Part shown: piece after piece, positions 1 through 10,484 of the stretch
Numbering within the stretch: the first letter of the stretch is position 1
Layout of the letters: the number at the start of each line of letters is the position of its first letter
Source of the DNA: a virus
Taxonomy: Duplodnaviria; Heunggongvirae; Uroviricota; Caudoviricetes
DNA length: 11,400 nucleotides
Virus record (IMG/VR): IMGVR_UViG_2654587571_000016
Strand: one strand, 5' to 3'
Made by a program: the position numbers and the translations under genes
Notes under the pieces: model-generated
Databases searched by the model: none
Told to the model about the DNA's origin: nothing
What the model saw: the letters and a program-made list of their open reading frames with translations, nothing else

Positions 1-696
1 GCCTTCATCAGTGGTAAGGCACCGGAAATCAAACCCTCGCCCGGCGGCAACACGCCATCGGGTCCGTCTGCAGATACGTCCGTTCGCACAATCTCCCTGC
101 TGCCGGCAGCCGGAGAGGCTGCTGCGCAGGGCTGGAGCATTAAGGATGGCGGAATTCAGTTGTCAGATGGTGTATTTAAGATCACCAAGCAGAGCAATAA
201 AACCTGGTCCCTGACGCATCCGGTGGATGACGCAATTACCCTGCTGACACAGGGCGGCAGACTGACCTGTAAGTTCCGCCTGTCAGGCGCACTGACCAAC
301 AATCAGTTCGGTCTGGGAATTTATCTGTATACCGATGTAGCGTTACCTGACGTCGTGGCGATGACCGGGACTGGTAACCCGTTCCTGATGTCGTTCTTCA
401 CCCAGACCACAGACGGCAAACTGAATCTGATGCATCACAAGAAAGCAGGAAACACAAAGTTGGGCGAGTTCGGGAATTACAGTAACGACTGGCAGACGCT
501 GGAGCTGGTGTTCACCGCCAGCAGTGCCACGGTTACTCCGAAACTGAATGGAGTGGCTGGCCCGGCATTCCAGGTCATAAAAGACAGTCTGACACTGGGG
601 CTGAATGCACTGACGCTGACGGATATTACCAAAAATGCAACGTATGGCGTTGAGATAGAAAGTCTGGTGCTGGAAATAAATAGTCCTGCAGCGTAA
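1..696 (+). CDS. Hypothetical protein, 5'-truncated by the window edge (at least 231 aa); predicted beta-rich, function unknown
   Basis: Frame 1 is open from base 1 to the TAA at 694-696 (the listed ORF 160..696 is its distal part); followed 24 nt later by the gpR-like gene with a GGAGA Shine-Dalgarno. I do not recognise the family. Confidence 0.55.
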   Translation, partial: AFISGKAPEIKPSPGGNTPSGPSADTSVRTISLLPAAGEAAAQGWSIKDGGIQLSDGVFKITKQSNKTWSLTHPVDDAITLLTQGGRLTCKFRLSGALTNNQFGLGIYLYTDVALPDVVAMTGTGNPFLMSFFTQTTDGKLNLMHHKKAGNTKLGEFGNYSNDWQTLELVFTASSATVTPKLNGVAGPAFQVIKDSLTLGLNALTLTDITKNATYGVEIESLVLEINSPAA

Positions 697-719
697 GGAA
701 GAACAGGAGAGCAAAACAG

Positions 720-1187
720 ATGCTTAAGACAAACAGCCTCCGGAAGGGCATGATTCATGGGTGTCGCTGGTGTCAGGCCAACCCGGAAAAATTCACCATT
801 TTCGTGGAGAGCGGCAACATTGAAACGACCGGAGAAACGCCCTCGTTTGTTTACCGCTATCAGATGGTGATGTTTGTCATGGATTACGCCGGGGAGCTGG
901 ACGACCTCACGCTGCCGCTACTGGCGTGGTTATCCGAAAATCAGCCGCAATTGTTGCTTAATCCGGAGCGTAATCAGGACATCAAATTCTCCGCCGTTAT
1001 CAATGACGATGACAGCGCCGATCTCCTGTTTACGCTCCCTCTGCGGGAACGCGTTCGCATCACGCGCAGCAGTCAGGGGGCACCGCAGGCAGAACACCTG
1101 CAGGAGCCAAAACCCCGTCTGCCATCTTCCGAAGGCGACTGGTCGCATGTATTCCAGGATGTGACGTGGGGTGAAAGCGATGGATAA
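720..1187 (+). CDS. P2 gpR-like tail completion protein (155 aa)
   Basis: ATG at 720 with GGAGA upstream; same length as P2 R (155 aa); sits immediately upstream of S, V, W, J, I, H, G homologs; stop overlaps the next start (ATGGATAA). Confidence 0.6.
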   Translation: MLKTNSLRKGMIHGCRWCQANPEKFTIFVESGNIETTGETPSFVYRYQMVMFVMDYAGELDDLTLPLLAWLSENQPQLLLNPERNQDIKFSAVINDDDSADLLFTLPLRERVRITRSSQGAPQAEHLQEPKPRLPSSEGDWSHVFQDVTWGESDG

Positions 1188-1815
1188 GGCATTCACCCGC
1201 GTGGATGAAACCTTTGAGGCTATCCGCGACAGCCTGAATCAGCAGGCCATCAATAACATCGCCAGAAAGCTGGCACAGGATTTACGCCGCGCCCAGCAGG
1301 CGCGTATCCGGTCACAGAAAGCGCCGGACGGGACCGCGTGGACACCACGCAGACGCCGCGCAACCCGGATACAGGAGCGCATTCGCTTTATCTGGAATAA
1401 CGAAGCACGCACGCTGAAAAACTGGCATCACGACACGGGGAAATACGGGCGAACCATTACCGGGTGGGATGAGGATAAAAACAATATCCGCACGTTTTAC
1501 CGGGATGACATCGACCGCTTTCTGGAAATACGCACCCGGCGCATCAACCAGGACAGCACAAAGCGCGTCCCCATGTTCGTAAAACTGCGCACCGCCCGCT
1601 ACCTGAAAGCCCGTGCAGATGCTTCCGGTGTGACGGTGGGTTACAGCGGCGTGGCCGCACGTATTGCCCGCGTTCATCAGTTCGGTGAGCGCGATCAGGT
1701 TGCGCCGGGCATTTTCACCGATTACCCGGTACGTGAGCTGTTGGGCATCAGTCAGGCAGATGAACGCCTGATTTATAACACGGTGCTGGGCCGGATTGCG
1801 GAGGCTGTACGGTGA
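1180..1815 (+). CDS. P2 gpS-like tail completion / virion morphogenesis protein
   Basis: ATG at 1180 overlaps the upstream stop (alternative GTG at 1171); its TGA overlaps the GTG start of the gpV homolog (GTGA); position and size fit the P2 S slot, though larger than P2 S. Confidence 0.55.
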   Translation: MDKAFTRVDETFEAIRDSLNQQAINNIARKLAQDLRRAQQARIRSQKAPDGTAWTPRRRRATRIQERIRFIWNNEARTLKNWHHDTGKYGRTITGWDEDKNNIRTFYRDDIDRFLEIRTRRINQDSTKRVPMFVKLRTARYLKARADASGVTVGYSGVAARIARVHQFGERDQVAPGIFTDYPVRELLGISQADERLIYNTVLGRIAEAVR

Positions 1816-2393
1816 GCGCAGAACTCATGCGACTGCTGAGCAACATCATCCGCACTGGGATCATCTCTGAAGTTGATGAGAAGTCCTGGTGCGTGCGCGT
1901 TCGCAGCGGCGAACTGGAAACAGGCTGGTTGCGCTGGAACACCACGCGCGCGGGAGCCTTCAATGTGTGGCTGCCGCCATCACCCGGCGAACAGGTGGTA
2001 ATTGCCTGCATTGGCGGCAACCCGGAAACCGCCATGATAATTGGCAGCCTGTGGAGTGATGCCAATCCGGCCCCCGGCAAAAGCCTGAAAGAAATCGTGG
2101 TCAGCGCGCCGGATGGCGCGGTGTTCCGCTACGACGCGGACGCAGGCGCACTGAGCGCCAGCGGCATGAAAACGGCCACCCTGCAGGCATCCGTCAGTGT
2201 GACACTGGACACGCCCGTCGTGGAATGCACAGACCTTCTGAGAACGGCGACGCTTGACGTCACAAAAGGGGGAAAGATGAGCGGCAATATCACGCACAGC
2301 GGCGGCAATTTCACCTCAAACGGCATCACAGTGCATACGCATAAACACGGTGGCGTTAAAGGTGGCAGCGATTCGACAGGAGGCCCGCAGTGA
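1812..2393 (+). CDS. Baseplate assembly protein V (P2 gpV-like spike/hub)
   Basis: 193 aa; N-terminal ...NIIRTGIISEVD... and the C-terminal ...VTKGGKMSGNITHSGGNFTSNGITVHTHKHGG... block match the gpV family as I recall it; GGAGG 8 nt upstream of GTG 1812; GTGA overlap with the W homolog. Confidence 0.85.
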   Translation: MSAELMRLLSNIIRTGIISEVDEKSWCVRVRSGELETGWLRWNTTRAGAFNVWLPPSPGEQVVIACIGGNPETAMIIGSLWSDANPAPGKSLKEIVVSAPDGAVFRYDADAGALSASGMKTATLQASVSVTLDTPVVECTDLLRTATLDVTKGGKMSGNITHSGGNFTSNGITVHTHKHGGVKGGSDSTGGPQ

Positions 2394-2740
2394 CAACCCG
2401 CTACACAGGAATGAACCCGGACGGAACGGGAAACCTGAACGATATGGAGCATCTGAAACAGTCAGTCAGGGACATCCTGACCACCCCGCTGGCAAGCCGG
2501 GTTATGCGACGGGAATATGGCAGCCTTGTGCCCGATTTAATTGACGAACCCATGAATAACACCACTCGTCTGCAATGCATGAGTGCTGCCGTGATTGCGC
2601 TGACACGATGGGAACCCCGCATTGCCCTGGACGCCATCGACGTTGTCTGGAAGGCAGGAGGCCGCGCCGGGGTGACGCTGTCGGGCACTGTCATGCAGAC
2701 CATGCAGAATGTTGAATTAACCATCACGCTGAGGGAGTAA
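2390..2740 (+). CDS. Baseplate wedge protein W (P2 gpW / T4 gp25-like)
   Basis: 116 aa, the size of P2 W (115 aa); AGGAGG 7 nt upstream of GTG 2390; gp25/GPW-like sequence; directly followed by the gpJ homolog. Confidence 0.8.
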   Translation: MTTRYTGMNPDGTGNLNDMEHLKQSVRDILTTPLASRVMRREYGSLVPDLIDEPMNNTTRLQCMSAAVIALTRWEPRIALDAIDVVWKAGGRAGVTLSGTVMQTMQNVELTITLRE

Positions 2741-2743
2741 ATC

Positions 2744-3640
2744 ATGCCTGCCGTTGACCTTTCCCAGTTACCGGAACCCGCCATCATCGCGGAGCCTGAC
2801 TTTGAGGCAATTCTGGCTGACACAAAGGCCATGATGATTGCGTCCTATCCTGCCGAACAGCGTGAAGCCGTCTCCGCCGCGCTGGAGCTGGAATCGGAAC
2901 CCCTGAACGTTATCGCCCAGACAACAGCGTTTCGTGAAATGCTGTTACGCCAGCGGGTCAATGAGGGGGCACGCGCCTGCATGTTAAGCCACAGCGCCGG
3001 GACAGACCTGGACAACCTCGCGGGCAATATGAACACAAAGCGCCTGACCATCACTCCGGCAACGGATACCACCGACGCAGTGATGGAAAGTGACACCTCG
3101 CTGAGACTGCGGGCGCAGCGGGCGTACGATGGCCTGAGTGTTGCTGGCCCGTCAGGTGCATACGAGTATTTTGCCCGCAGCGCCAGCGGTCTGGTGCGTG
3201 ATGCGCGGGCTATCAGTCCGTCTCCGGCAAATGTGACGGTTTCCATCCTGTCCACTGAAGGCGACGGCACAGCAACGGAGGCGTTGCTTAATACCGTTCG
3301 CGCCGTTCTGAATGCAGAGGATACCCGCCCGGTGGCCGACCGCCTGACGGTACAGAGCGCCAGAATCGTGACATGGCGGCTGAATGCAAAACTGTACTTT
3401 TACCCCGGCCCGGAATCCGAACCTATTCTGGCGGCGGCTGAATCGTCGTTCAGGAAGTGGCTGGCTGAGCAGGGGCTTATCGGTCAGGACGTGGCGTTGT
3501 CCGCCATTGCTGCCGCACTGCATGTGCACGGTGTGCAACGCGTGGAGATAATCGAACCCACACAGAATATGGCCATCAGCGACATACAGGCGGCGCGCTG
3601 TGAGTCGTTCACCATCAGCGAAGGTGGGCGCAATGAGTAA
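2744..3640 (+). CDS. Baseplate assembly protein J (P2 gpJ-like)
   Basis: 298 aa (P2 J is about 302 aa); ATG 2744 with GAGGGAG upstream; stop overlaps the gpI start (ATGAGTAA). Confidence 0.85.
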   Translation: MPAVDLSQLPEPAIIAEPDFEAILADTKAMMIASYPAEQREAVSAALELESEPLNVIAQTTAFREMLLRQRVNEGARACMLSHSAGTDLDNLAGNMNTKRLTITPATDTTDAVMESDTSLRLRAQRAYDGLSVAGPSGAYEYFARSASGLVRDARAISPSPANVTVSILSTEGDGTATEALLNTVRAVLNAEDTRPVADRLTVQSARIVTWRLNAKLYFYPGPESEPILAAAESSFRKWLAEQGLIGQDVALSAIAAALHVHGVQRVEIIEPTQNMAISDIQAARCESFTISEGGRNE

Positions 3641-4163
3641 TTCACTGTTACCACCATCAGCCAGCAGTTTCATGCGTTGTGCCGAAGCTGTCGGAACGCG
3701 CATTACAGACATCCCGGTAGACCTCAACACGCTGTGGTCGCCGGACACCTGCCCGGTGCACCTGCTGCCTTATCTCGCCTGGGCATTTTCCGTTGACCGC
3801 TGGGATCGCAACTGGCCGGAAGAGACAAAACGACAGGTGATTCGTGATGCATGGCTGATACACCGACACAAAGGGACCATCAGCGCACTGCGCAGGGCCA
3901 TTGAGCCGCTGGGATACCTCATTCGCGTGTCTGAGTGGTGGGAGTTCGGCGGAGAACCGGGAACATTTACCGTTGAAGTCGGCACACTGGACAGTGGCGT
4001 GACGGAGGAAATGTATCTGGAAATGGAGCGGTTGATTGCTGATGCCCGTCCGGTCAGCCGCCACATGACAGGGCTGAATATCATTCAGGAAATTCCGGGG
4101 GATATTTTTGCAGCGGCGGCAACTCATGACGGTGAAGTTATTACCATTTATCCGGACGATTAA
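3633..4163 (+). CDS. Tail/baseplate protein I (P2 gpI-like)
   Basis: 176 aa when started at ATG 3633 (the upstream in-frame ATG 3600 lies inside gpJ and is unlikely); AAGGTGG Shine-Dalgarno; same size as P2 I; stop 2 nt before the gpH start. Confidence 0.8.
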
Positions 4164-4165
4164 GC

Positions 4166-6298
4166 ATGAGTACCACAACACGAAAATTTAAAACCGTTAT
4201 CACCGATACAGGTGCCAAAAAATTAGCTCAGGCAGCCGCGCCAGATGGTAAGCCTGTCCGCCTGACTCATATGGCCGTGGGCGACGGTGGCGGCGCGTTG
4301 CCCACACCAGACAGTAAGCAGACCCGTCTGGTGCATGAGGTGTGGCGACACACTGTTAATCGCGTCATCCTGGACGCAACACATCAGAACCGCATTATTG
4401 CGGAGCTGGTTATTCCTCCAGAAACGGGCGGATTCTGGATCCGGGAAATTGGTGTTTTTGATGAGCACGGCGATTTAATCGCGGTGGGCAATACTGCCGA
4501 AAGTTACAAGCCAGCCGTTGCCGAAGGGTCCGGACGTGCACAAACATTTCGCACCATTCTGACCGTATCCAGCACTGCCACTGTGGCGCTTACCGTGGAT
4601 AACACCATGGTGATGGCCACAGTGGATTACGTGGATAACAAACTGAAAGAGCATGAACAGTCACGATGTCACCCGGATGCCTCGCTGACCGCAAAAGGCT
4701 TTGTTCAACTCAGTAGCGCCACTAACAGCGATTCTGAAACGCTGGCTGCAACGCCGAAAGCGGTTAAGGTCGCGTATGATCTTGCTAACGGAAAATATAC
4801 AGCGCAGGATGCCACAACAGCGCGAAAAGGCCTTGTCCAGCTTAGTAGTGCAACCAACAGTACATCTGAAACGCTGGCGGCAACATCAAATGCAGTAAAA
4901 GCTGCCTATGACAATGCTGAAAAACGTCTGCAGAAAGCTAAGAATGGTGAGGATATCTCTGATAAAGACACCTTTACGAAAAATATCGGTGCCTGCCGTG
5001 CATATAGTGCAGAGCTGAATATTGGTGGAGATAGTGAAGCATGGACAACTGCGCAGTTGATTTTTTGGCTAGAGAGTCAGGGGGCATTTAACCATCCTTA
5101 CTGGATGTGCAAAGGCTCATGGGCTTATGCAAATAATAAGGTCATTACAGATACAGGTTGCGGAAGTATTTGTCTTGCAGGTGCTGTTGTGGAAGTTATT
5201 GGCACCCGCGGCGCAATGACCATACGCATTACCACACCGAGTACATCCAGCGGTGAAGGCATCCCTAATGCTCAATTTACTTATATTAATCATGGTGATG
5301 CTTATGCTCCTGGCTGGCGAAGGGACTATAACTCCAGGAATAAGCCAACAGCATCAGAGATCGGGGCGTTACCGTCAGATGGGACAGCAGTATCGTCAGT
5401 TAATCTGGCTTCAAAAGGTCGGCTGACCGCCCTGACAGATAATATGCAGGGGGCCACAGGTCTGGAGTTATACGAGGCGTATAACAACGGATATCCAACA
5501 ACGTATGGAAATATCATTCACCTGAAAGGGATGACAGCCGTTGGCGAAGGCGAATTACTCATCGGCTGGAGTGGTATAAGCGGTGCTCATGCTCCGGCAT
5601 TTATTCGTTCACGACGGGATACGCCCGACGCAAACTGGTCGCCGTGGGCGCAGCTTTACACCTCGGCTCATCCTCCTGAAGAGTTTTATCCAGTCGGTGC
5701 ACCGATTCCGTGGCCATCAGATACCGTTCCGTCTGGTTATGCCCTGATGCAGGGGCAGACTTTTGACAAATCTGCATACCCGAAACTTGCAGTCGCTTAT
5801 CCGTCAGGCGTTATTCCTGATATGCGTGGCTGGACGATTAAGGGCAAGCCCGGCAGTGGTCGTGCCGTATTGTCTCAGGAACAGGACGGCATTAAATCGC
5901 ACACCCACAGCGCCAGCGCATCCAGTACGGATTTGGGGACGAAAACCACATCGTCGTTTGATTACGGTACTAAAACGACCAGTTCATTTGATTACGGCAC
6001 AAAAACTACGAATAGCGCTGGAAATCATTCACACAATATACCTGTTGGTCACACTGGCGCGGGGAATGGTGTATCAGCCGGTTATAACGCTGCGTTAGGT
6101 ACTGGTACCACGTCGAGCGCAGGCGAGCATGCTCACAATGTATATATCGGTGCCCATAACCACACTATCGGCATTGGTGCTCATGCCCATTCTGTCATTA
6201 TTGGTCCCCACGGACACACCATCACCGTTAACGCTACGGGTAACGAAGAAAACACCGTAAAAAACATCGCATTTAACTATATTGTGAGGCTTGCATAA
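4166..6298 (+). CDS. Tail fiber protein (P2 gpH-like N-terminus and repeat region, His-rich receptor-binding C-terminus)
   Basis: 710 aa; the N-terminus (..[45 protein letters not shown]..) and the duplicated ..[21 protein letters not shown].. block match P2 H as I recall it; C-terminus carries repeated HxH motifs (HSHN, EHAHN, AHNH, AHAHS, HGH). Confidence 0.9.
4694..4912 (+). repeat. Diverged internal direct duplication in the tail-fiber gene (two ~87-nt copies, 4694-4780 and 4826-4912)
   Basis: Protein repeats [29 protein letters not shown] / [29 protein letters not shown]; the DNA copies are clearly related but diverged. Confidence 0.7.
5936..6016 (+). repeat. 30-nt tandem repeat, about 2.7 copies, encoding [10 protein letters not shown] units within the tail-fiber gene
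   Basis: Read directly: gggacgaaaaccacatcgtcgtttgattac / ggtactaaaacgaccagttcatttgattac / ggcacaaaaactacgaatagc. Confidence 0.8.
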
Positions 6299-6876
6299 TG
6301 ACATTCAGAATGAGTGAACACTCACGGACCATAAAAATTTATAATCTACTGACCGGAACCAATGAGTTTATTGGTGAAGGTGATGCATACATTCCACCTC
6401 ATACAGGTCTGCCTGCAAACAGTACCGATATTGCCCCGCCAGATATTCCGGCTGGCTTCGTGGCCGTTTTCAACAGTGATGAGGCATCGTGGCATCTCGT
6501 TGAAGACCATCGGGGTAAAACGGTTTATGACGTGGCATCAGGGGACTCGTTATTTATTTCTGAACTCGGTCCATTACCGGAAAATGTTACCTGGTTGTCG
6601 CCGTATGGAGAGTATCAGAAGTGGAACGGCACATCCTGGGTGAAAGATGCAGAAGCAGAAAAACTGTTTCGGATAAGGGAGGCGGAAGAAACAAAAAACA
6701 GCCTGATGCAGGTAGCCAGCGAGCATATTGCGCCACTTCAGGATGCCGTAGATTTGGATATTGCAACGGAGGAAGAGGCATCGTTACTGGCTGCATGGAA
6801 GACATACCGGGTATTGTTGAATCGTGTTAATACAGCGGTAGCAGCGGATGTTGAGTGGCCAGTCGCCCCACAATAA
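6298..6876 (+). CDS. Tail fiber assembly chaperone (Tfa; P2 gpG / lambda Tfa family)
   Basis: 192 aa; C-terminal ..[39 protein letters not shown].. is the Tfa signature as I recall it; start overlaps the gpH stop (TAATG). Confidence 0.85.
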
Positions 6877-6882
6877 AGAGAA

Positions 6883-6912
6883 AAAGCCATCGATTGAAAT
6901 ATAGATGGCTTT
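6883..6912. terminator. Hairpin between convergent genes (possible bidirectional terminator, better for the minus-strand transcript)
   Basis: aaagccatc-N12-gatggcttt, 9-bp stem; on the minus strand it is followed by a TTTTTCTCT run; lies 7-8 nt from both stop codons. Confidence 0.3.
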
Positions 6913-6919
6913 ATGTACT

Positions 6920-7492
6920 CTATTTATACAATACAACACCGCTCTTTTTAGTTATATATGTGCAGTTCGATGGTATATCTTTATTTATAAAAGACATTGC
7001 ACCTATTTTTACATTATCCCCAATTTTACGTGATAATCCAATGATGCAACAATTAGCTCCGATATCAACGTTACTACCAATTTTTACTCTTGAACCAGGC
7101 ATGTCACCATCTATCTGTCCAATGGTAGTATTCTGTCGTAACACCAGATTTTCACCAGCATCAACAGCAAAATGAACAACAATTCCAGCATGATGGGGAA
7201 TTGTTAACCCTTTTCCAATATTTGCGCCCAATCCAATTTCACAACCAAATTTGTTAATTATTTTACTGTTTAACTTTTTGGCTGCTTTCTTATGTAATTT
7301 ATTACCATTAATATACATTTCGTTAGCCAACCGCCACCAGAAAAGGAAATTCCGGTTACGCTGTTTTTTCTCTCTTAAAAGCCTCCAGATATCCATACGT
7401 TTCCGCCGAATTACTTCATATTTCCAGAAGTTTTTTAAATTAGTAGAGTCCCCAAATAAAACAAAGTGAATTGCCATTAAGTAAGACAGCAC
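6920..7492 (-). CDS. Hexapeptide-repeat acetyltransferase (WcaB/CysE/WbbJ-like left-handed beta-helix O-acetyltransferase); low-GC cargo gene
   Basis: Hexapeptide signature ..GCEIGLGANIGKGLTIPHHAGIVVHFAVDAGENLVLRQNTTIG..IGSNVDIGANCCIIG..; by inspection much lower GC than the flanking tail genes. Start uncertain: GTG 7492 has GGAGA 5 nt upstream; alternatives are ATG 7477 and the longest-ORF GTG 7525. Confidence 0.75.
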   Translation of the reverse strand: MLSYLMAIHFVLFGDSTNLKNFWKYEVIRRKRMDIWRLLREKKQRNRNFLFWWRLANEMYINGNKLHKKAAKKLNSKIINKFGCEIGLGANIGKGLTIPHHAGIVVHFAVDAGENLVLRQNTTIGQIDGDMPGSRVKIGSNVDIGANCCIIGLSRKIGDNVKIGAMSFINKDIPSNCTYITKKSGVVLYK

Positions 7493-7648
7493 GATAATCT
7501 CCTTAATTATTATTTCAGACCACACATATTATAAGGTTAAGAGATTATAAAATCCTGTTGTTTGTTATTCAAAAACAATTTTCTGAGAAGGACATACAAC
7601 AGCAAGTCGCCAGTCACCTTCATCAGGAAATTGGCGACATACGTTAAA

Positions 7649-8143
7649 TCAGAGCAGCCCCTTAACTGAGCTGGTCGCGCTATTAAGGGATGATGTCACC
7701 TTATCTTTGAAGCCGGACAACATATCGCTGAACGATGAGGATTGCAGGCGCTCCCGCAAATCCTCATCACAGCGTTCAAGAGTCAGTGAAAATTCTATCT
7801 TTTTCGCCTTACCGTAGCGATCAAACTCGGAGCGGGTCGTATTCGTTTCGGTCAGGACATACATGCCGTAAATCTGCCCGACGCCATCAATCAGAGGCCA
7901 GGGCCGTCCTGTATACGCCTGCGTGGTCAGCAGAGACAGCGACACTTCGCCACCTGTAATTTCAGGATAAAGCACACCAGAAAGAACGATGCGATCATCA
8001 CCTGCACCGATATACTGCCAGCTTGCTGAACGGTTAACGCGTTCATTTTTCACATGCCGCCAGCTTTTGTTTTGCTGTAACTGCTGATGCGGCAGCGTGC
8101 GCAGCTCAAAAACAAACATGCCATAGATCATCATCATGGCCAT
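7649..8143 (-). CDS. P2 gpU-like tail protein, orphan and in inverted orientation relative to the tail operon
   Basis: 164 aa; N-terminal MMMIYGMFVFELRTLP..WRH...RVNR and ..WPLIDGVGQIYGMYVLTE..IEFSLTLER resemble the gpU family from memory; normal GC, flanked by low-GC DNA. Confidence 0.6.
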   Translation of the reverse strand: MAMMMIYGMFVFELRTLPHQQLQQNKSWRHVKNERVNRSASWQYIGAGDDRIVLSGVLYPEITGGEVSLSLLTTQAYTGRPWPLIDGVGQIYGMYVLTETNTTRSEFDRYGKAKKIEFSLTLERCDEDLRERLQSSSFSDMLSGFKDKVTSSLNSATSSVKGLL

Positions 8144-8205
8144 GACTCCTCAATCTTTATCGTAAAAGTTTCAATGCTTTTTCCTGCGGAGGTAAGGGAT
8201 ATGTA

Positions 8206-9248: not shown

Positions 9249-9389
9249 ATGTCGCAAAAATCGCTTACAGCCATCACGTTCTGCGTGACGGTAATCCTCA
9301 TCATCTGGATGCTACACGGTTCGCTGTGTGAAATACGGATGAGCTTCTGGGGAGCGGAGTTTGCGGCGTTCTTACAGTGTAAGCAGTAA
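9249..9389 (+). CDS. hok: Hok/Gef-family type I toxin (46 aa membrane peptide)
   Basis: MSQKSLTAITFCVTVILIIWMLHGSLCEIRMSFWGAEFAAFLQCKQ: hydrophobic N-terminal helix followed by the conserved SLCEIR...AAF(L/M) motif shared with HokA/HokC as I recall them; AAAGGAG Shine-Dalgarno 8 nt upstream; missed by the 60-aa ORF track. Confidence 0.8.
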   Translation: MSQKSLTAITFCVTVILIIWMLHGSLCEIRMSFWGAEFAAFLQCKQ

Positions 9390-9577: not shown

Positions 9578-9859
9578 TTACTCAGCATTCTCCTGCTTCC
9601 ATTGCCGGATCATTTCATCGGTAACATCACCCTCATAACATACCACGTCATACCCTCCATTACGGCTATATGCACTGCGTCCACCACATCTACTACCATT
9701 CCTTGCATGATTATAAGGACACGCACAATTGCCTGGATAAGATTCAATGGATTCTTTAATTATTTCTTTTTTGATCTGAGCATCAGACTTTCCTGTTGCT
9801 GCATATCCACTAAAAGATACTAAACAAAGGCAGATTGCCATTAATAAACCACATCGCAT
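9578..9859 (-). CDS. Small secreted cysteine-rich protein of unknown function (about 93 aa, predicted signal peptide)
   Basis: Taking ATG 9859 gives MRCGLLMAICLCLVSFSGYA|ATG..., a signal-peptide-like N-terminus; mature part holds 5 Cys (..PGNCACPYNHARNGSRCGGRSAYSRNGGYDVVCYEGD..). The longest ORF runs to 9973 (TTG/ATG) but that extension is non-hydrophobic and lacks a Shine-Dalgarno. Confidence 0.5.
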   Translation of the reverse strand: MRCGLLMAICLCLVSFSGYAATGKSDAQIKKEIIKESIESYPGNCACPYNHARNGSRCGGRSAYSRNGGYDVVCYEGDVTDEMIRQWKQENAE

Positions 9860-10140
9860 ACCGATACACTCTATTACTAACCAATCATAGCCCACATCAT
9901 AAAATCGAGATGAGGAGTACAATACCTTTAACAAGAAGGTGTCATAACGATAATATGTCGTGCAATTCATCAAAAAAAAGATCTATATCAAAGAGATAGA
10001 ACTCTTATCAGTGCTTCAGACATCGGCATTCGAGGCAGCAGAAAAACAGTAAATCTGACGAATTTGCCTTTTCCCAAGATGTTGTCAGATTAAAAAGATA
10101 GATTAGCGCAGGTACCTGTTGGTGGATTGCAGGAGGAAAA

Positions 10141-10245: not shown

Positions 10246-10329
10246 AGTTTAAACAGCACGTGCACTACCATTGTTTCTGCATATCGCCACACCATCGCCA
10301 CTCTACCGCCATTGCACAAAATACAAATA

Positions 10330-10355
10330 CGAAAAAACCACCCGAAGGTGGTTTC
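10330..10355 (-). terminator. Intrinsic terminator of the glyW-cysT-leuZ tRNA operon
   Basis: On the minus strand: aaaccacc-ttcg-ggtggttt hairpin followed by a TTTTTT run, about 40 nt after the leuZ 3' end. Confidence 0.6.
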
Positions 10356-10397
10356 ACGACACTGCTTATTGCTTTGATTTTATTCTTATCTTTCCCA

Positions 10398-10484
10398 TGG
10401 TACCCGGAGCGGGACTTGAACCCGCACAGCGCGAACGCCGAGGGATTTTAAATCCCTTGTGTCTACCGATTCCACCATCCGGGC
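10398..10484 (-). tRNA. leuZ: tRNA-Leu (anticodon UAA)
   Basis: The reverse complement matches E. coli tRNA-Leu(UAA) as I recall it (GCCCGGATGGTGGAATCGGTAGACACAAGGGATTTAAAATCCC...GGGTACCA), 87 nt including CCA. Confidence 0.95.

Follow-up and report, generated by a model that had tools for sequence, protein, structure and literature searches.

A P2/P88-like prophage carries a probable nanS-p sialate O-acetylesterase gene as cargo between lysC and R

The prophage sialate O-acetylesterases of enterohaemorrhagic Escherichia coli (EHEC), known as NanS-p, combine a DUF1737 domain, a SASA domain and a C-terminal domain (PMC10462455, PMC8065619). The chromosomal enzyme NanS/YjhS (PDB 3pt5) is a 9-O-acetyl-N-acetylneuraminic acid esterase, and its active site consists of Ser19 and His301 with Gln18 as the oxyanion hole and without a catalytic Asp (PMC9063846). 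Enzyme activity and a growth advantage have been reported for NanS-p alleles other than the one treated here (PMC8065619, PMC10462455). A scheme in which sibling cells benefit has been published for lambdoid NanS-p, and prophages lacking the Shiga toxin gene (non-Stx prophages) also carry nanS-p (PMC10462455). In this study, we analysed a viral DNA of 11,400 nucleotides (nt), IMG/VR record IMGVR_UViG_2654587571_000016, whose full length is called the window below, and focused on the open reading frame (ORF) at window positions 1-696. A preliminary description, made from the sequence alone, had presented its product as an unknown protein in the slot where P2 has its lysis genes. Comparisons of sequence and predicted structure indicate that the ORF very probably encodes the linker and the C-terminal carbohydrate-binding domain (a lectin-like jelly roll, DUF6645) of a prophage NanS-p sialate O-acetylesterase; we put the probability of this reading, including the late-release mechanism proposed below, at about 0.88.

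Starting at window base 1, frame 1 of the + strand runs through 231 codons before it reaches a TAA at 694-696, and because this frame has no upstream stop, the 5′ end of the ORF lies beyond the window, as had been supposed. The corresponding region of strain 2013C-4225 (L001) served as the reference, with window position equal to L001 position minus 20000. The results showed that the window ORF makes up the last 231 codons (the 3′ 37%) of a 625-amino-acid (aa) gene, with window residue 1 at protein residue 395; the database name of the full gene in L001 is 'DUF6645 domain-containing protein' (WP_000202144.1, 625 aa). Recovery of the upstream sequence, the check suggested in the preliminary description, thus yielded a DUF1737 + SASA + DUF6645 protein. 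Pfam placed DUF1737 at residues 4-53 (PF08410, 28.8 bits, cut-off 24), SASA at residues 75-271 (PF03629, E=2e-11), encoded upstream of the window, and DUF6645 at residues 476-586 (PF20350, 69.9 bits, above the gathering cut-off of 27). Residues 69-388 matched E. coli NanS/YjhS (3pt5, E=2.3e-124) and residues 430-622 matched the NanS-p C-terminal domain (PDB 6yp6, E=3.1e-31). The DUF6645 match (E=2.5e-19) and the 6yp6 match of the ORF, together with an inter-allele ratio of nonsynonymous to synonymous substitution rates (dN/dS) of 0.17-0.46, indicate that the frame is a genuine gene and not open by chance. In the comparison with 3pt5, Ser19, His301 and Gln18 of NanS aligned with Ser82 (nucleophile), His368 (base) and Gln81 (oxyanion), and both active-site blocks of NanS-p were found, block I as GQSN (Gln81-Ser82) and an RxxH block containing His368. 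The three-domain architecture and the structure matches therefore point to a member of the NanS-p family and to neither a lysis nor a tail protein, and the label of an unknown protein gives way to that of a C-terminal lectin-like domain in a family with solved structures and published enzymology.

We modelled the 231 window residues with AlphaFold2 on a 16-sequence alignment. The mean predicted local distance difference test score (pLDDT) was 89.4, and residues 28-228 formed an all-beta sandwich, consistent with the earlier impression of a beta-rich protein, while residues 1-27 appeared as a disordered Pro/Ser/Gly linker with a pLDDT of about 50. As modelled, the window domain has the lectin-like jelly-roll fold of the NanS-p C-terminal domain (6yp6), and the fold searches agree with the model. 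For the phi24B protein, the aromatic residues Y510, Y515, Y540 and F611 have been proposed as the sugar site (PMC10462455), and three of the four positions remain aromatic here (F497, Y502 and F527). The DUF6645 family is tiny, with 58 representatives at E<=1e-3 among 1.84 billion proteins, and its domain partners are SASA, DUF1737 + SASA, or DUF1737 alone. In two proteins, P0055 (294 aa) and P0078 (440 aa), DUF1737 is fused directly to DUF6645 in the absence of an esterase; they may represent a putative capsid-binding head joined to a lectin-like domain, reminiscent of carbohydrate-binding capsid decoration proteins.

On the + strand of the window, the NanS-p inter-domain linker occupies positions 1-81 (window amino acids 1-27, protein residues 395-421; Pro/Ser/Gly-rich, AFISGKAPEIKPSPGGNTPSGPSADTS) and the C-terminal domain positions 82-693 (protein residues 422-625), with the Pfam DUF6645 core at nt 244-576; the frame reading ends with the nanS-p TAA stop at 694-696. 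It is followed by a 23-nt spacer without a terminator (697-719), which holds the AGGAGA ribosome-binding site of gpR at 706-711, and by the P2-type tail completion gene R (720-1187, + strand, start ATG at 720; PF06891, E=1e-37), which forms the right-hand boundary of the inserted gene. The tight spacing to R reported earlier was therefore correct, and the exact figure of 24 nt was not, the measured gap being 23 nt.

To define the context of the gene, we compared the window with L001 and with related phages. Window positions 1-8167 are identical to P2-like prophages in many complete E. coli genomes of the O103, O111 and O26 types. L001 contains a complete P2/P88-like prophage at tRNA-Leu (leuZ), between yecA and pgsA, with the late gene order X, holin, M15 endolysin, DUF2570 (LysB-like), LysC, the 625-aa gene, R, S, V, W, J, I, H and G. 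The P2-type lysis cassette is thus intact just upstream of the window; holin, endolysin, LysB-like gene and LysC directly precede the esterase gene, which does not occupy the slot of the P2 lysis genes. The esterase gene is a cargo insertion of about 1.9 kb between lysC and R of a P88/P2-like prophage. The empty site is seen in Xuanwuvirus P88_4B11, a 97%-identical phage without the gene, in which lysC is joined to R through a segment of about 94 nt; relative to this phage, homology of the occupied site ends within the last ~55 nt of lysC and the alignment returns ~40 nt into R, at L001:20762 (window 762). The GC content of the esterase gene (0.50-0.56) is slightly below that of its flanks (0.57-0.62). 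Its ATG overlaps the lysC stop as ATGA, and the + strand shows no terminator-like site from lysC through the esterase gene to R, so the sequence is consistent with the earlier suggestion that the gene and R are co-transcribed.

The position beside lysis and tail-completion genes is the only point in favour of a P2-family lysis accessory or tail/structural protein replacing K, lysA, lysB or lysC. Family and structure searches gave no match to a P2 lysis protein (Y holin, K endolysin, LysA, LysB or LysC) or to a tail protein, in keeping with the earlier remark that the ORF has no lysis-related feature, and these candidates were rejected. The homology that could have overturned the preliminary description was thus sought and did not appear; the lysis or tail reading is refuted by the homology results and is almost certainly wrong. 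Of the two guesses made before, a structural component or a cargo gene, the second is supported by the empty-site phage and by a polymorphic locus, and the first is not established, although the phi24B preprint discussed below keeps it conceivable.

We then surveyed 5,426 complete E. coli genomes. The P88-like lysis-R region was found in 1,051 genomes; the site was empty in 687 and occupied as in the window in 375 (about one third), which answers the earlier question of whether the locus is variable. About 7% of the complete genomes therefore carry a nanS-p copy in a P2-like prophage, including the O104:H4 lineage and O103, O111 and O26 EHEC, and the O104:H4 outbreak strains C227-11 and 2011C-3493 have a 626-aa allele at the same lysC-R site, which in C227-11 corresponds to NZ_CP011331.1 1681594-1683474. 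Five NanS-p enzymes of C227-11 are described as active (PMC8065619), and we infer that the copy in the P2 slot is among them. Homologues of nanS-p occurred in 1,722 of the genomes, at a median of three and up to ten places per genome. A repeat family of this size can fragment short-read assemblies, and contig-end fragments make up many of the database entries for the protein. A wider contig scan found only five loci, in E. albertii and Escherichia sp. and as NanS-like single-domain genes in Proteus and a Bacillota metagenome-assembled genome. Two IMG/VR loci, L015 and L018 (nanS-p at 6001-7878), join P2-like holin, endolysin and LysB genes and a nanS-p with a P2-type head to a lambdoid holin S, and lack R and S of P2. 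This junction occurs in none of the complete E. coli genomes, and for this reason the two loci are probably assembly chimeras across a multi-copy gene; rare inter-prophage recombinants are possible.

These data suggest how the protein might act. Because the gene overlaps the lysC stop and no terminator precedes R, it would belong to the late morphogenesis/lysis transcription unit and would be made late after prophage induction. No export signal is evident, so the enzyme would leave the cell when the adjacent holin, endolysin and spanin genes cause lysis. Once released, the esterase would strip Neu5,9Ac2 on mucin glycans of its 9-O-acetyl groups, with the C-terminal lectin domain keeping the enzyme bound to sialoglycans, and the sialic acid could then be used by surviving lysogenic siblings.

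Several points weigh against the NanS-p reading with this mechanism. Block IV reads RQTH, compared with RSSH, RASH or RPTH in PMC10462455, with the His retained; the fourth sugar-site aromatic is lost (F611 of phi24B corresponds to L593); and sugar binding by the C-terminal domain is a proposal even for phi24B (PMC8065619). A literature search found no enzymatic, binding or expression results for this allele. Simple scans for the P2 late-promoter motif TGT-N12-ACA and for a separate promoter or terminator of the esterase gene gave nothing informative, and no promoter was identified. Finally, compared with the otherwise identical 2013C-4225 prophage, the window lacks 7,513 bp (L001 28168-35680) at junction 8167/8168. 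The missing stretch comprises tape measure T, E/E+E′, tail tube FII, sheath FI, D and the 5′ part of a YecA-family gene, and at the junction gpU abuts the truncated YecA-family gene with no obvious microhomology. The junction was found in 0 of the 5,426 complete genomes, which indicates that either the window prophage is defective or the source assembly collapsed there. With such a deletion no tails would be made, and the enzyme could be released by lysis alone and not with virions.

To examine the history of the gene, we compared its parts with those of lambdoid alleles. Against the NanS-p proteins of phage 434 and the Stx1a phage YYZ-2008, identity was 28-31% in DUF1737, 84-85% in SASA, 97% in the second linker and 91-92% in the C-terminal domain; against phi24B, the corresponding values were 20%, 67%, 30% and 39%. 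In the window domain, the phage 434, H-19B and Stx1a-phage alleles showed 91-92% protein identity, and their DNA identity reached up to 98.5%. The DNA of the window linker and C-terminal domain was 98.5% identical to a lambdoid-context allele and the SASA part of the same gene <=86% identical to any lambdoid allele, while SASA parts of other P2-context alleles reached 97-98% identity to lambdoid alleles. Between P2-context alleles, 100-nt profiles revealed patches of 81-90% identity (69% in one 100-nt window) inside flanks of 99-100%. Patches relative to L091, L016 and L013 lie at L001 19200-20300, from upstream of the window to about window position 300, and are 94-98% identical to lambdoid copies. 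Internal patches that match lambdoid copies suggest that nanS-p paralogues of unrelated prophages have undergone gene conversion within one cell.

The P2-type DUF1737 head behaved differently from the rest of the protein. It is only 20-31% identical to lambdoid heads, and a tblastn search with the 69 N-terminal residues returned only three phage records, all P2/P88-like. Among 80 IMG/VR loci, the P2-type head occurred in 11, all 11 with a P2-like holin, endolysin and LysB upstream, and the lambdoid-type head never occurred with P2-like lysis genes; where the downstream flank of a lambdoid-head locus was available, the lysis gene there was always a lambdoid holin. Judged from these alignments, the esterase and lectin parts are exchanged in patches with lambdoid copies, and the DUF1737 head stays with the P2-like backbone.

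Relative to phage 434, the synonymous divergence (dS) was 0.71 for SASA and 0.21 for the C-terminal domain and was saturated for the head. The dN/dS ratios were 0.1-0.16 for SASA and 0.17-0.46 for the C-terminal domain. Values well below 1 indicate purifying selection throughout, and they bear on the idea that the gene is a decaying, non-functional remnant. The 7.5-kb tail-gene deletion in its host prophage and the many fragmentary database entries of the family would fit a remnant; however, the 625-codon frame is intact with its catalytic residues kept, many O103, O111 and O26 genomes share the sequence at 100% identity, and most of the database fragments arise where contigs break off at a multi-copy repeat. 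We consider decay very improbable.

The behaviour of the head also raises the idea of a virion component, in which the P2-lineage DUF1737 head would dock on capsid hexons and display, or self-cleave, the esterase and lectin for mucus adherence or receptor modification. This idea is compatible with the enzymatic assignment and would alter who benefits and how. In phi24B, the DUF1737 of gp84 forms hexamers on the central hexons of a T=9 capsid with Tyr42 as the anchor, and the esterase and lectin are cleaved off (2026 preprint 10.64898/2026.04.10.717836). The pairing of each head type with its own lysis genes while esterase and lectin are shared, the esterase-less DUF1737 + DUF6645 proteins P0055 and P0078, and Ser-Pro motifs in both linkers are consistent with such a role. 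On the other hand, the heads of 434 (lambda gpE/gpD capsid) and YYZ-2008 (645-aa fused capsid protein) are ~86% identical although their major capsid proteins have no detectable similarity; in lambdoid phages, the type of head thus does not follow the type of capsid, which weakens a strict capsid-adaptation idea. The phi24B anchor Tyr42 aligns with Thr43 here, the P2 capsid is T=7 and not T=9, and the P2-like case is known from genes alone. Moreover, the DUF1737/SASA boundary is exactly where homology to the lambdoid copies begins, so that linkage to the upstream flank suffices to produce the head pattern. We regard a virion role as unlikely.

A broader version, which we hold somewhat more doubtful, is that P2/P88-like phages joined an esterase-lectin cassette to their own DUF1737 capsid-docking head, so that virions would be decorated with, or would shed, a sialoglycan-binding esterase, the cassette being renewed by gene conversion with lambdoid copies while the head stayed fixed. 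If this were true, the capsid decoration of phi24B would extend to an unrelated T=7 myovirus, and DUF1737 would be a general cargo adaptor on HK97-fold capsids.

Another possibility concerns the substrate of the NanS-p enzyme: the esterase might serve the phage by de-O-acetylating bacterial surface polysaccharide (O-antigen, capsule or colanic acid) during adsorption or release, and not act on host mucin. Such a possibility was raised for NanS-p in a review (PMC8065619), and the same prophage encodes a WcaB/EpsC-like O-acetyltransferase (window 6920-7492), so that acetylation chemistry of surface sugars could be a theme of the element. Against this, the catalytic domain is very close to the sialate-specific NanS, outside its own family the C-terminal domain is closest in fold to a sialic-acid-binding lectin domain, near-identical alleles occur in O103, O111, O26 and O104 hosts that differ in O-antigen, and the protein has no tail-associated domain. 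We consider a bacterial surface substrate improbable.

Other features of the window's prophage were also recorded. The gene at 6920-7492 (- strand) is a second cargo gene, located after the tail-fibre assembly gene, in a slot where P2 has Z/fun; it encodes a 190-aa hexapeptide-repeat acetyltransferase with a GC content of 0.36-0.39, closest to EpsC/CysE/WcaB-type polysaccharide or serine O-acetyltransferases and under all NCBIfam cut-offs. The prophage thus combines an O-acetylesterase with an O-acetyltransferase. A 124-bp direct repeat, 99% identical between window 10329-10452 and L001 508-631, spans the 3′ 55 nt of tRNA-Leu(taa) (window 10398-10484, - strand) and 69 nt downstream; it is the attL/attR duplication of a prophage located at the tRNA-Leu of the Leu-Cys-Gly tRNA cluster beside pgsA. 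At the prophage end, between ogr and the tRNA cluster, lie a 131-aa ORF (window 9578-9973, - strand), whose N-terminal segment is hydrophobic and whose C-terminal part is Cys-rich, and a Hok/Gef-family toxin gene annotated in L001 at the equivalent of window ~9249-9389. The 131-aa ORF had no Pfam or NCBIfam match, and L001 annotates only its C-terminal 93 codons, as a hypothetical protein.

As a NanS-p gene, the ORF is an ordinary family member and the finding is already known, since the family, its fold and its architecture have been described and the same gene is present in much-studied outbreak genomes. Our literature search found no paper placing nanS-p in a P2-like phage, so that the P2-like location and the backbone-specific head add modestly to what is known. 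The main value of the analysis is one of correction: what had looked like an unknown replacement of lysis genes comes from an enzyme family that has been characterised and linked to fitness and virulence, and the lysis genes are all in place. NanS-p assists pathogenic E. coli in feeding on gut mucus. The gene also occurs outside lambdoid and Stx phages, and the P2-like copy belongs in any count of nanS-p dosage that is set against growth on mucin sialic acids. A mosaic gene with a backbone-bound DUF1737 head is also relevant to the capsid-binding function recently claimed for DUF1737.

Taken together, the locus can be placed among four known systems. The closest are the NanS-p genes of EHEC and Shiga toxin-producing E. 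coli (933W L0105/z1466; phi24B vb_24B_21, which is gp84; the 434, H-19B and Stx1a-phage alleles), which share the DUF1737, SASA and DUF6645 architecture, the catalytic residues, the late position adjoining a lysis cassette and the presence of multiple copies per genome. Those genes sit between stx/Q and holin S of a lambdoid phage, whereas the gene described here is downstream of lysC and upstream of R in a P2/P88-like myovirus prophage. It lies, like them, in a prophage late region, here the P2/P88-like late block; the place downstream of stx/Q and upstream of holin S, which it does not occupy, is a typical and not a defining location. Chromosomal E. coli NanS (YjhS, 3pt5) shares the SGNH type II esterase domain with its Gln-Ser + His site and without a catalytic Asp, but it is a single-domain protein that lacks both the DUF1737 head and the lectin-like C-terminal domain, the part encoded in the window. 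The lectin domain of Vibrio cholerae sialidase (PDB 2w68/1w0o), which we take to be a sialic-acid-binding module of the carbohydrate-binding module family 40 (CBM40) type in CAZy, is the nearest non-family fold to the window domain; at only ~13% sequence identity and compared by fold alone, the window domain would at best work like such a module. P2 morons sit in fixed slots, for example Z/fun and tin/old, and the NanS-p gene here resembles them as a discrete cargo gene at a set junction of a conserved late operon, present or absent among near-identical phages; it differs from them in its slot (lysC-R) and in abutting lysC translationally, with no promoter or terminator of its own seen.
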